From: Candidatus Babeliales bacterium
GTDB taxonomy: Bacteria > Babelota > Babeliae > Babelales > JANWKD01
Reading direction: 5' to 3'
NCBI GenBank assembly: GCA_963762115.1
Contig: CAVXJH010000006.1
Span: 320,001 to 384,000 of the forward strand
Length of the DNA: 64,000 nucleotides
The notes under the pieces are model-generated. The model was not told the origin of the DNA and ran no database searches. It saw only the letters and a list, made by a program, of their open reading frames with translations. A program made the position numbers and the translations under genes. Shown here in pieces: positions 29,268 to 39,960 of the stretch; position 1 is the stretch's first letter; every line of letters begins with the position of its first letter.

Positions 29268-30167
29268 ATGAAAAAAATAGTTATTATATTAGCATTTATT
29301 TTTGTTGGCATGGCTAATGCTATGCAACAATGGTCATTATTAGATGGTAATGAAGTTCCTCAATATGTACATACTGATCCTGCAAAAATTGCTTATCTAA
29401 AAGATATACAAGGTTTATATCATCGTATTCAACGAGAAGATGTTCAATCGTGTACCCAAGAAGAAATTCAATCAGAAGGCCGCACTAAAGGACCGGGTAT
29501 TGAACAACTATTTTCTTTTCTCGTGCCAGTGCAAAATCATGATGTTCCTCATATAAAACCATTTGAGGGTGATTTTTATTTGACTGAACATGAAAATGAT
29601 GAAGAAGAAGTTTTTGCGCCATTAATTCTTGATTGTTCGCAAGAAGCTTCAGTAAAAAATGCTGAAAAACAACAGGATCGAGCGACTGTTGATCGCCAAG
29701 AAAAAGAATTGGAGAGTATGCAGTCAATTTTCTTGGGGCAAATAAAAGAGAAAAGTAATCCCAGAAAAAAAAGAACACTTAAAGAAGCCATTGCATCTGA
29801 TGAAAAAAATAGAAACCTCTCTAAGGAATCTGTTGTATTAAATGCAAGTAAAAGATCAATGTCATCAAAAAATATGGAGATATGCGGTATTAATGGTTGT
29901 CAGTATCGTTCAGCTTTTAATAGTGATATGAAAGTCCATAAAAGAAAACCACATAAATTGATAGAATGCCCTTATCCTGATTGTAGTGCTCCTTATCAGT
30001 CTCAAGATGGTTTGTCGCAACATATTGGTGATGCTCATCCGGAAAAATATTGTAAGGTGTGTGATTATGCACCAAAGAAACTGGGTAATTTATTAAGGCA
30101 TTTTCGAGGTGTTGAACATCTCAGGAAGTTGGCATCTATTAATTCTAGGGAAGGACAAATCGTATGA
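29268..30167 (+). CDS. Secreted triple C2H2 zinc-finger protein, array copy 1
   Basis: Signal peptide MKKIVIILAFIFVGMANA; RKKR cluster; CGINGC, CPYPDC and CKVC fingers. Confidence 0.9.
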   Translation: MKKIVIILAFIFVGMANAMQQWSLLDGNEVPQYVHTDPAKIAYLKDIQGLYHRIQREDVQSCTQEEIQSEGRTKGPGIEQLFSFLVPVQNHDVPHIKPFEGDFYLTEHENDEEEVFAPLILDCSQEASVKNAEKQQDRATVDRQEKELESMQSIFLGQIKEKSNPRKKRTLKEAIASDEKNRNLSKESVVLNASKRSMSSKNMEICGINGCQYRSAFNSDMKVHKRKPHKLIECPYPDCSAPYQSQDGLSQHIGDAHPEKYCKVCDYAPKKLGNLLRHFRGVEHLRKLASINSREGQIV

Positions 30168-31156
30168 AGAAAATAGTTATTATATTAGCGTTTATTTTTG
30201 TTGGCATGGCTAATGCTATGCATATACAACGGTCATTATTAGATGGTAATGATATGCCTCAATATGTATATACTGATCCTGCAAAAATTGCTTATCTAAA
30301 AGATATACAAGGTTTATATCATCGTATTCAACAAGAAGATGTTCAATCGTGTATTCAGGAAGAAATTCAATCAGAAGGCCGCACTAAAGGACCGGGTATT
30401 GAACAACTATTTTATTTCCTCGAGCCTGTTTTTTCTGACTGTAGTCGAACAGGAGATGTTCAATCACGTACTCAAGAAGAACGTACGAGCGGACCAAGTA
30501 TTGAACAAATATTTTATTTTCTCAAGCCAGTACAGAATCATAATGTTTCTCATATAGAATCATTTGAGAGTGATTCTTATTTGACTGAACATGAAAATGA
30601 TGAAAAGAAGGAAGTTTCTGCAGCGTCATTAATTTTTGATTTTTTGCAAAAATCTTCAGTAAAAAAAGCAGAAGAACGACAAAATAGAGCGGCTGTTGAT
30701 CGCCAAGAAAAACAATTGAGAGAAGAGAAAAGTAAATCAAGAAAAAGAACATTAGAAGAAGCCGCTTCATCTGATGGAAAAAATAGAGGCCTCTCTAAAG
30801 AACCTGTTGTTTCAAATACAAGCAAAAAGGTTGCAAGAAAAAGTTCAACGGTATCAGAAAAAATGAAGATATGCGGTATTAATGATTGCCGGTATCATAC
30901 AGCTGTGAGTGGGCATATGAAGCATCATAAAGAAACACTGCATGAGCAAGAGCAGTGTCCTTATCCTGGTTGTAGTACTCTCTGTCAATCCAAAAGTGAT
31001 TTTTCGCAACATATTGATGATGCCCATCCAGAAATATGTTGTAAAATTTGTGGCTATAAGCCAAAGAGACGGTGTGAGTTATTAAGGCATTTTCGAGGTG
31101 TTGAACATCTTAGGAAGTTGGCATCTATTAATTTGGGGAAAGGACGAATCGTATGA
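30164..31156 (+). CDS. Secreted triple C2H2 zinc-finger protein, array copy 2
   Basis: Same architecture; ATGA overlap with copy 1. Confidence 0.9.
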   Translation: MKKIVIILAFIFVGMANAMHIQRSLLDGNDMPQYVYTDPAKIAYLKDIQGLYHRIQQEDVQSCIQEEIQSEGRTKGPGIEQLFYFLEPVFSDCSRTGDVQSRTQEERTSGPSIEQIFYFLKPVQNHNVSHIESFESDSYLTEHENDEKKEVSAASLIFDFLQKSSVKKAEERQNRAAVDRQEKQLREEKSKSRKRTLEEAASSDGKNRGLSKEPVVSNTSKKVARKSSTVSEKMKICGINDCRYHTAVSGHMKHHKETLHEQEQCPYPGCSTLCQSKSDFSQHIDDAHPEICCKICGYKPKRRCELLRHFRGVEHLRKLASINLGKGRIV

Positions 31157-32121
31157 AAAAAATAGTTATTATATTAGCATTTATTTTTGTCGGCATGGCT
31201 AATGCTATGCAATTGTCATTATTAGATGGTAAGAAAGTCCATCAATATGTACATACTGATCCTGCAGAAATTGCTTATCTAAAAGGTATGCAAGATTTAT
31301 ATAAACGTATTCAACAGCAAAAATCACGTACTCAAGGAGCAGTTCAATCAGAAGGTCCTACTCGCGGACCAGGTATTGAACAAATATTTTCTTTTCTTAA
31401 TCCTGTTTTTCCTGACTGTAGTCAAACAGAGGATGTTCAATTACGTACTCAAGAAGAACGTACGAGCGGACCAAGTATTGAACAAATCAAGCTAGCGCAG
31501 AATCATAATGTAGAACCATTTGAGAGAAATTTTTATTTGACTGAATATGAAAATGATGAAAAGAAGGAAGTTTCTGCATCGTCATTAATTTTTGATTTTT
31601 TGCAAAAATCTTCAGTAGAAAAAGAAGAAGAACGACAAAATAGAGCGGCTGTTGATCGCCAAGAAAAACAATTGGGAGAAGAGAAAAGTAAATCAAGAAA
31701 AAGAACATTTGAAGAAGCCGCTTCATCTGATGAAAAAAATAGAGGCTCTTCTAAAGAACCTGTTGTACCAAATACAAGCAAAAAAGCTGCAAGTAAAAGT
31801 TCAACGTCATCAGAAAATATGAAGATATGCGGTATTAATGGTTGTGGCTTTAGTACAGTGCTGAGTGATACCATGAGGCGTCATAAAGAAACACCGCATG
31901 AGCAAGAGCAATGTCCTTATCCTGGTTGTGCTTTTTACCATCAATCTAAAGGTGAGTTGTTTCGGCATATTAAGAGATCTCATCTAGAAAAATCTTGTAT
32001 TGTTTGCGGTTATGCGCCAAAGGAACGGAGTAGTTTGTTAAGGCATTTGAAACATGCTAAACATCGCCGTGTTCCGAAAAATCCGGCATCTATTAATTTT
32101 AAATTAGGGGAAATTATATGA
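31153..32121 (+). CDS. Secreted triple C2H2 zinc-finger protein, array copy 3
   Basis: Same architecture; ATGA overlap. Confidence 0.9.
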   Translation: MKKIVIILAFIFVGMANAMQLSLLDGKKVHQYVHTDPAEIAYLKGMQDLYKRIQQQKSRTQGAVQSEGPTRGPGIEQIFSFLNPVFPDCSQTEDVQLRTQEERTSGPSIEQIKLAQNHNVEPFERNFYLTEYENDEKKEVSASSLIFDFLQKSSVEKEEERQNRAAVDRQEKQLGEEKSKSRKRTFEEAASSDEKNRGSSKEPVVPNTSKKAASKSSTSSENMKICGINGCGFSTVLSDTMRRHKETPHEQEQCPYPGCAFYHQSKGELFRHIKRSHLEKSCIVCGYAPKERSSLLRHLKHAKHRRVPKNPASINFKLGEII

Positions 32122-39046: not shown

Positions 39047-39069
39047 GTTTTAAAATTTAGGATAAATCG

Positions 39070-39960
39070 ATGAAAAAAATATTTATTGTATTGGCATTTA
39101 TTTTTGTTGGCATGGCTAATGCTATGCAATTGCCATTATTAGATGGTAATAAAGTTCGTCAATATGTACATACTGATCCTAAAGAAATTGCTTATCTAAA
39201 AGGCATACAAAATATTCAACAAGAAAATGTTCAATCGTGTACTCAAGAAAAAATTCAAGCGGAAGAACGTACGAGTGGACCAGGCATTGAACAAATATTT
39301 TCTTTTCTCAAGTCAGTGCAGAACCATGATGTTCCTCATATAAAACCATTTGAGAGTGATTCTTATTTGATTGAATATCAAAATGATGAAAAAAAAGAAG
39401 TTTCTGCGCCATTAATTCTTGGTTTTTGTTCAGTAGAAAATGCTGATGAACAACAAGGTCGAGCGACTGTTGATCGCCCAAAAAAAGGATTGGAGGGTAT
39501 GCAGTTCAGCTTTTTGTTGCAACCAAAAGAGAAAAGTAATTCTAAAAAAAGAACATGTGAAGAAGCAGCTTCATCTGATGAAAAAAAGAGCGGTCTCTCT
39601 AAGGAATCTGCTGTATCAAATGCAAGCAAAAGGGCTGCAAATAAAAGTTCAACATCGTCAGAAAAAATGAAGATATGCGGTATGAATGGTTGTAGCTTTA
39701 GTGCAGTATTGCGTGATACCATTAGGCGTCATCAAGAAACACGGCATGAGCAAAAGCAATGCCCTTATCCTGGTTGTGCTTTTCACTATCAATCCAAAGC
39801 TGATTTTTCGCAACATATTGATAATGCCCATCCAGAACTATGTTGTACTATTTGTGGTTATGAGACAAGGAAACGGTCTTGTTTATTACAACATTTTCAA
39901 AGTATTAAACATCGCAAGAATCTGGCATTTATTAATTCTGGGGAAGGACAAATCGTATGA
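39070..39960 (+). CDS. Secreted triple C2H2 zinc-finger protein, array copy 12
   Basis: Same architecture. Confidence 0.9.
   Translation: MKKIFIVLAFIFVGMANAMQLPLLDGNKVRQYVHTDPKEIAYLKGIQNIQQENVQSCTQEKIQAEERTSGPGIEQIFSFLKSVQNHDVPHIKPFESDSYLIEYQNDEKKEVSAPLILGFCSVENADEQQGRATVDRPKKGLEGMQFSFLLQPKEKSNSKKRTCEEAASSDEKKSGLSKESAVSNASKRAANKSSTSSEKMKICGMNGCSFSAVLRDTIRRHQETRHEQKQCPYPGCAFHYQSKADFSQHIDNAHPELCCTICGYETRKRSCLLQHFQSIKHRKNLAFINSGEGQIV

Follow-up and report, generated by a model that had tools for sequence, protein, structure and literature searches.

A tandem array of zinc-finger genes

We analysed a stretch of 64,000 nucleotides (nt; hereafter the window) on contig C6 of the genome of a Candidatus Babeliales bacterium (phylum Babelota, or Dependentiae; genome G000, 1.53 Mb, 95% complete). 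For one flanking gene, the nearest named relatives come from 'Candidatus Babeliales' and Dependentiae records. Twelve intact open reading frames (ORFs), c1 to c12, lie there head to tail on the plus strand from 29268 to 39960, each encoding a protein with C2H2-type zinc fingers, and their sequences are mosaics of one another. They form the core of a run of 15 zinc-finger genes of the same orientation, flanked by an ankyrin gene and a metallophosphatase gene. The twelve copies are 73-88% identical at the DNA level, and inspection of ORFs and sequence found a start codon, a ribosome-binding region and a full reading frame in 12/12. Each encodes, in this order, a signal-like N-terminus of 19 residues, a variable region of 135-217 residues that is net acidic over its first two thirds, a basic patch with a KRT invariant across the copies, and three fingers. 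Eight of the 11 junctions overlap, the tail of each copy being the ribosome-binding region of the next gene; the 23 nt between c11 and c12 are the only sizeable gap.

The first copy, c1 (29268..30167, 299 aa), shows the full architecture, with a signal peptide, a variable region, an RKKRT basic motif and three fingers. It is followed by c2 (30164..31156, 330 aa), with a c1-like 5' part, a c3/c8-like middle and a c5-like basic region; c3 (31153..32121, 322 aa); c4 (32118..32969, 283 aa), which has an 8-residue insert in finger 3 and a tail in common with c12; c5 (32957..33889, 310 aa), with an insert in common with c7; and c6 (33895..34656, 253 aa), marked by a large in-frame deletion of the middle region that is spanned by a short-read contig. 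The middle of c7 (34653..35594, 313 aa) is c5-like and its finger 1 c8-like, and c8 (35600..36601, 333 aa) has a full-length counterpart in a separate record, protein P0008 (82% of its residues). Next come c9 (36598..37392, 264 aa); c10 (37389..38222, 277 aa), nearly identical to c9 over its 5' 304 nt and among the most divergent copies in its 3' half; c11 (38228..39046, 272 aa), in which a fourth finger-like motif stands in place of the tail found in the other copies; and c12 (39070..39960, 296 aa), 500 nt of which match one short-read contig exactly.

The array copies are mosaics

A first reading of this DNA, made from the sequence only, had listed five motifs shared among subsets of copies, and all are exact: the finger 1 sequence QYHATVSRHMKDH in c7 and c8, the HEQDLV insert in c5 and c7, the tail HFQSIKHRKNLAFINS in c4 and c12, RHFRGVEHLRKLASIN in c1 and c2, and SLIFDFLQKSSV in c2, c3 and c8. 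It had also described a near-identical 5' end of c9 and c10 followed by divergence. We found five differences in the first 304 nt of this pair (positions 13, 19, 24, 223 and 295, which leaves 198 unbroken identical nt starting at nt 25) and divergence from nt 305, for an overall identity of 82%.

The pairwise homoplasy index (PHI) test was significant on all gap-free sites (p=0.0005) and on third positions (p=0.001), and p=0.0005 persisted without c10, without c8 and c10, in the fingers alone and in the N-terminal part alone. At amino-acid-invariant codons it gave p=0.89 on 11 informative sites, which are too few. GENECONV-like tracts reached a global p<0.05 in 11/66 copy pairs. With the gene divided into six segments, approximately unbiased (AU) tests rejected each of the 30 topologies taken from another segment, and they rejected the whole-gene tree for all six. 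Because AU-type tests favour each segment's own tree, we also ran a null of one shared history (parametric simulation on a single tree with segment-specific branch lengths, 40 runs): the observed summed log-likelihood difference (dlnL) was 266.9, against 19.5±4.8 under the null (maximum 32.1). Per-segment phylogenies, which the earlier reading had proposed as a check, are thus incongruent, and the mosaic structure of c1-c12 is, with near certainty, real.

Exchanged tracts are short and ignore module borders

High-identity tracts of about 90-300 nt join both near and distant copies, stop inside domains and often span gene junctions. The youngest is that of c9 and c10 (36598..36901, matching 37389-37692; 304 nt, 98.4%). 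Finger 1 of c7 lies within a tract (35238..35375) that matches c8 at 36236-36373 (138 nt, 97.8%), and a tract of c2 (30577..30810) matches c3 at 31533-31766 (235 nt, 96%), its first part also matching c8 at 35950-36064 with a 92-nt exact run. Two tracts lie across junctions: that of c3/c4 (32025..32163) matches the c8/c9 junction at 36505-36643 (139 nt, 95.7%), and that of c5/c6 (33874..34035) matches the c11/c12 junction at 39048-39210 (164 nt, 95.7%). All are on the plus strand; no inverted tract and no minus-strand self-match was found in 28300-41800.

Painting each copy by its closest relatives was noisy, giving 119 segments against 78-113 in 20 simulations without recombination, and its boundaries are not evidence of breakpoints. 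In the 81 painted segments at ≥90%, the mean distance to the partner was 3.8 copies (4.33 at random) and adjacent copies were the partner in 22% (17% at random). Between adjacent 72-nt windows, the distance signal was about 0 over the N-terminal half and reached 0.2-0.6 over the fingers, the less scrambled part of the gene. This near-zero signal, together with tracts that end within domains, implies that breakpoints are not bound to modules. The proposal that recombination shuffles N-terminal modules and individual fingers therefore holds in part: c7 and c8 exchanged finger 1 in its entirety (138 nt, 98%), but tracts cross junctions and end inside domains. AU differences hinted that fingers 2 and 3 move together, an idea that we dropped on a bootstrap difference in distance correlation of 0.07 (-0.34 to 0.46).

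A single unequal crossover as the source of c9/c10 was rejected: the 3' halves of c8 and c9 are identical at 362/441 sites, versus 251/252 for the 5' parts of c9 and c10. Since c8 and c9 do not share their 3' halves, one crossover is insufficient, and the pair needs at least two events or a conversion. Conversion of nt 25-304 fits just as well as an expansion with a later contraction near nt 25; gene conversion and sequential crossovers are indistinguishable from one genome.

Fingers, export and nuclear targeting

The zinc ligands are invariant across copies, and the pattern C-x2-4-C-x12-H-x3-5-H, with a hydrophobic residue at +4, occurs at least three times in 10/12 copies, c4 and c6 carrying small indels. 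AlphaFold predicts a disordered N-region (predicted local distance difference test, pLDDT, <50 over 56-161) and three confident fingers (finger model pLDDT 86). A basic-hydrophobic-AxA N-terminus, a putative export signal, is present in 12/12 copies, and two secretins are encoded in the genome. The products are on balance, by a narrow margin, predicted to be host-nucleus effectors.

Several observations weigh against nuclear proteins that read DNA. The strict bipartite consensus of a nuclear localization signal is matched by c10 only. Linkers 1-2 and 2-3 all have four residues (24/24; EQKQ and PEKS types) after H-x4-H, the TGEKP type being absent from the copies. The best copy scores 21.1 bits against a Pfam zf-C2H2 cut-off of 25.2, with no PF00096 match in the genome, and superposing the three-finger model on DNA-bound arrays gave a poor fit (root-mean-square deviation about 10 Å). 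In wider searches, Foldseek gave no match at E<=0.001 and VIA-align none at Z>=5; the C2H2 clusters returned by the Atlas were generic, and recognition stayed under its threshold. The finger combinations are new as sequences; that shuffling has changed a sequence-specific DNA binding is doubtful.

C2H2 arrays across the Babelota

Matches to Pfam zf-C2H2 were found in 81/261 Babelota genomes (59 above cut-off), versus 1/14 controls; the figure of 81 is a floor because the search misses G000 itself. We fetched 26 loci, 24 of them around finger matches and hence not a random sample. In these, a crude score assigned a hydrophobic N-terminus to 64/70 multi-finger ORFs (background in G000, 631/1102), and 102/331 linkers started with TGE[KR]P. 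Six genomes contain tandem arrays of 4-8 signal-peptide C2H2 genes: L094 (G035, 4-3648), L098 (G082, 946-11904), L100 (G003, 8261-17284), L108 (G073, 7098-15864), L109 (G108, 157-3897) and L110 (G109, 1568-7054).

Like c1-c12, these genes stand in tandem and combine a signal peptide, an acidic low-complexity region, a basic motif and C-terminal fingers. Unlike c1-c12, they have 4-12 fingers per gene and mostly seven-residue TGEKP-type linkers, and finger number varies inside genes. Their best match to the c1-c12 finger profile (E 1e-9) places them too far away to belong to the same expansion. PHI from the N-terminus through finger 1 was significant in 2/5 arrays, L109 (0.0005) and L108 (0.0095, on an alignment that includes two divergent genes), and not in L094 (0.052), L098 (0.23) or L110 (0.38).

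Multi-finger C2H2 proteins are a hallmark of eukaryotes. The six arrays, many with textbook TGEKPY linkers, are by their predicted proteins a eukaryote-type transcription-factor architecture in bacteria, and they are probably the better system for testing DNA binding. Our search of mainly open-access literature found no description of Babelota zinc-finger proteins, although supplementary domain tables could hold C2H2 matches, and 'zinc finger' has zero occurrences in four core Babelota papers. Members of the phylum live as parasites inside protists and encode many proteins with signal peptides (PMC6561590, PMC4776705).

The comparison bears on what the fingers of c1-c12 do. Shuffling could have proceeded as described while the fingers form a packed module that binds protein, RNA or zinc and is no Krüppel-like DNA reader. 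Its four-residue linkers and the H-x5-H spacing of finger 3, which we take to be matrin/JAZ-like, would suit such a module, as would the spread of fast sites across the finger surface and the best structural matches, all weak, to packed two-finger units (2wbt, Z 4.7; Zap1 1zw8, Z 3.7; IDD10 5b3h, Z 3.6). The finger regions are, however, net basic (+4 to +13), 6 of the 18 most variable columns fall on canonical contact positions, in fingers 1 and 3, and the related Babelota arrays carry the canonical linkers counted above. We regard the packed module as unlikely, while giving it more credit than the other alternatives below.

Selection probably keeps the copies intact

Internal gaps come in multiples of three in 33/34 cases. 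On segment trees, our own codon-model code gave a ratio of nonsynonymous to synonymous rates (omega) of 0.04 for zinc ligands and core, 0.19 for the signal peptide, 0.62 for the N-region and 0.8 for other finger sites. Model M2a beat M1a (2dlnL 34.9) and placed about 5% of sites in a class with omega 4.8. Helix positions -1, 2, 3 and 6 had a pooled omega of 1.54-1.65, higher than at other finger sites (fixed-class test, p=1e-4) and than 1 (p=0.03), which resembles the pattern of PRDM9 (PMC2779102). These contact positions are nearly constant across copies in finger 2, and reach omega 2.28 in fingers 1 and 3, a post hoc split.

These values lose force on several counts. Residual recombination within segments inflates all results above 1; the excess at -1, 2, 3 and 6 disappears against other exposed helix positions (omega 1.32; p=0.43); and against random variable finger columns it has p=0.11. 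The idea of selection confined to contact residues is not upheld by either control. The picture given by the codon models is of genes kept intact, with surfaces that would vary freely or under mild diversifying selection.

Alternatively, the array could be a product of dosage amplification or drift in an intracellular bacterium of small population size, with recombination a side effect of the tandem repeats and the new finger combinations functionless. For most of the gene, pairwise pN/pS is close to 1 (0.90, 95% interval 0.76-1.08), which would be expected of such churn, as would the missing contact-specific excess against fair controls, the 16 further tandem clusters of 3-4 genes and the insertion-sequence-sized repeats elsewhere in the genome, and a WD40-type trio in the window with a switched 5' block. 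Drift has also been invoked for similar expansions in Parachlamydiaceae (PMC4209131, in the part available). Twelve intact frames, in-frame gaps and ligands at omega 0.04 speak against functionless copies, as do the site class with omega above 1 and the occurrence of independent, similarly built arrays in other Babelota families, and we consider the neutral account rather improbable.

General recombination probably drives the exchange

A Pfam search identified RecA in G000, and MutL and a MutS motif are present as well. No RVT_1 match, the signature sought for a reverse transcriptase, was found in the genome (95% complete), and a scan of 51 ORFs of the window revealed no recombinase, serine recombinases being sought within the window. 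Two tyrosine recombinases both lie on another contig, C3. The earlier suggestion that exchange goes on with no dedicated recombinase or reverse transcriptase in the window is borne out by these searches. In the same window, the 703-aa protein encoded at 49772-51883 has just two of the MutS domains, III and V; a separate 862-aa MutS-motif protein is encoded on C3.

Programmed swapping of whole fingers or N-terminal modules at fixed sites, of cassette, shufflon or retroelement type, would explain why finger 1 of c7 and c8 sits within one tract and why highly conserved motifs bound the fingers. It is very improbable, as tract ends are scattered and cross junctions, inverted repeats and silent cassettes are absent, no reverse transcriptase was found and no recombinase lies nearby. 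General machinery, in the form of RecA-type ectopic exchange, very probably drives the process. One point counts against it: MutS and MutL are expected to hinder exchange between copies that are 80% identical.

From a few initial copies on, the gap-free head-to-tail layout would have supplied RecA-type exchange with repeats to act on, whether on sister chromosomes or on a single chromosome. Through short conversions, and through unequal crossovers that in turn expand and contract the array, tracts of some 90-300 nt would pass between any copies, blind to domain and gene borders, and a whole finger would move only where a tract happens to cover one. Such exchange would go on generating new protein variants. 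Selection would purge frameshifts and ligand loss, and would tolerate, and at some sites probably favour, change of the finger surface. The operon would be co-expressed, its products leaving through Sec and a type II secretin; directed by the basic motif, they might then enter the host nucleus and mimic transcription factors there by binding nucleic acid of the host or proteins of its nucleus. Taken as a whole, the explanation that we favour, and hold to be reasonably probable, is a lineage-specific patchwork array produced by general recombination and encoding exported zinc-finger proteins likely aimed at a protist host. Most likely, the recombination is ordinary and the substrate unusual, namely C2H2 arrays with export signals in a protist parasite.

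Elsewhere in G000, contigs C3, C5, C6 and C7 hold several repeats of 0.6-1.7 kb, insertion-sequence sized, in 3-6 copies at 94-100% identity, and most of the 16 further tandem clusters consist of genes with signal-like starts.

The array is not an assembly artefact

Chimeras formed by misassembly of a repeat array, named in the earlier reading as what would undo it, are a most improbable source of the shared blocks: the genome is metagenome-assembled, no single record spans the whole array, and the 11 array pieces listed cover 2083/10693 nt with none over the c9/c10 tract, but most shared blocks are 86-98% and not 100% identical, and both short-read contigs and the independently recorded homologue P0008 agree with the assembly. 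These contigs (low depth, from two public runs of one study, which may depend on the same data as the assembly) were at least 99% alike in 14/15 cases, without joints or indels; there was also one unrelated 35-nt partial match. The 11 array pieces listed showed zero differences, and they include the 500 nt of c12, over four partner changes, and 198 nt over the c6 deletion. P0008, on another contig of 2,080 nt, repeats the patchwork of c8.

Exchange continued after lineages split

A protein search identified four homologues outside the window (P0008, P0011, P0014 and P0016), on contigs of 2,080 and 2,792 nt, which were compared with the array as proteins only. P0008 has c8 as its best or tied match in 7/9 segments and a tail of c6/c9 type. 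P0011 joins a c1-like middle to a c3-like finger 1 (22/25) and c12-like fingers 2 and 3 (26/28 and 20/27), a combination absent from c1-c12. Relative to its counterpart P0014, c7 is closer to c8 in the middle (24/25 and 40/46, versus 15/25 and 26/43 for P0014), and its finger 2 matches P0014 (26/28). These patchwork differences indicate that exchange continued after the lineages split. P0014 itself has the basic-motif block twice, one c9/c11-like and one c1/c7-like, as expected of an out-of-register crossover. Two metagenome scans for DNA of relatives' arrays gave 0/292 candidates and one chance match inside a helicase gene, and a profile run against 1.84 billion proteins recovered members of the array itself, P0014 and multi-finger proteins of great length.

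In a congener (G001; one contig, 93% complete), nine flanking genes are kept in order, and the array site holds one 163-aa signal-peptide gene with a single finger, so that the count of zinc-finger genes at the site is 15 in G000 versus 1 in G001. Among the other 260 genomes searched, the best match to the finger profile was no better than E 1e-9. Expansion in the G000 lineage is the simpler reading; loss in G001 is conceivable, since synteny on the array side is lost in both other family members examined.

Comparison with known systems

In its evolution the array resembles the transcription activator-like effectors (TALE/RipTAL) of Xanthomonas and Ralstonia, bacterial proteins that act as host transcription factors and whose specificity modules are reshuffled by segmental gene conversion, slippage and recombination (PMC4987410, PMC7819608, in the parts available). 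These have repeats of 33-35 residues, a demonstrated base code and type III secretion, and exchange mainly within a gene. The array, in contrast, combines C2H2 fingers with a Sec-type signal, shows exchange between entire genes in tandem and has a function that is predicted; neither the alignment nor the Pfam scan revealed TALE-like repeats of 33-35 residues. In the available part of a review of nucleomodulins, no C2H2 effector appears (PMC7819608).

It is conceivable, if speculative, that Babelota possess an arsenal of secreted C2H2 transcription-factor mimics, a zinc-finger counterpart of TAL effectors amplified repeatedly in separate lineages, in which recombination would rewrite host targets and tune host range or control. 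Were nuclear entry and DNA reading true, this would be a second bacterial route, beside TAL effectors, to a reshufflable control of host transcription, and would offer a handle on how Babelota take over their hosts as well as a natural library of finger variants. The array contains matched pairs for tests, c7 and c8 sharing finger 1 only and c9 and c10 the N-terminus only.

The PEX/NEX F-box and BTB families of the amoeba-infecting Parachlamydiaceae are likewise lineage-specific expansions of eukaryote-like candidate effectors in protist symbionts; they include a 13-member tandem array, and both drift and selection have been invoked (PMC4209131). As far as the available text of that study goes, they differ in evolving by birth-and-death with only marginal recombination and in carrying ubiquitin-pathway domains. 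Recombination in the array is pervasive: it shares the lineage-specific tandem expansion of a birth-and-death family, and not the scarcity of recombination among members.

The C2H2 fingers of PRDM9 are diversified by non-allelic gene conversion with fast change of the recognition helix; the protein is eukaryotic, with canonical linkers and omega of 10-30 confined to -1/3/6 (PMC2779102, in the part available). The array is bacterial, with short linkers and an omega of about 1.6 at contact sites that is not confined there. The KRAB zinc-finger clusters of animals invite the same comparison. In Borrelia vls, Neisseria pilE/pilS and Anaplasma msp2, short RecA-type tracts build mosaics from paralogues, with one expression site, silent donors and immune selection. 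In contrast, all 12 array copies are full genes in one apparent operon, with no apparent silent or truncated donors. The searches above revealed neither the reverse transcriptase of a diversity-generating retroelement, a system that also relies on a template/variable repeat pair, nor the adjacent site-specific recombinase and inverted sites of a shufflon or inverton. Of the features of Krüppel factors, the array shows the C2H2 finger pattern and predicted fold, and lacks the TGEKP linker and the Pfam gathering score.

Neighbouring genes

Distant paralogues border the array on both sides, all on the plus strand. Upstream lies a 168-aa gene (28543..29049) with a signal-like start and a matrin-like terminal finger; downstream are d1 (39957..40538, 193 aa, two fingers) and d2 (40711..41607, 298 aa, four finger motifs). 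The 3' flank of the d1 stop (40539-40710) contains an out-of-frame finger resembling the last one of d2, ending in the KDPAFINFKLG tail and ribosome-binding block of the array; this tail block is thus not confined to c1-c12. On this evidence d1 resembles a d2-type gene that has been shortened and frameshifted, unless it contains an assembly indel. The best plus-strand sigma-70-like site upstream of c1 (29137..29164; 10/12, extended -10) is a putative promoter, in a region where such sites are not enriched before c1 (59, versus 57.9 in shuffles).

At 52010-58844, three genes of 650-717 aa with a signal-like start and weak WD40/Skp1 matches look like a second tandem family of the window that may be mosaic too: gene 1 is most similar to gene 3 over its first 300 nt (93%, then 69%) and to gene 2 over the remainder. 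On the minus strand, two adjacent genes (6447-7659) encode signal-peptide proteins whose C2H2 fingers are degenerate and whose C-termini are basic; at BLAST level they are unrelated to the array, and they adjoin a gene for a signal-peptide RING protein (8336-9391). Lastly, a ubiquitin C-terminal hydrolase (12037-13212; UCH/USP, E 3e-45), a deubiquitinase of eukaryote type, lies between ClpB and a UvrC-like gene.

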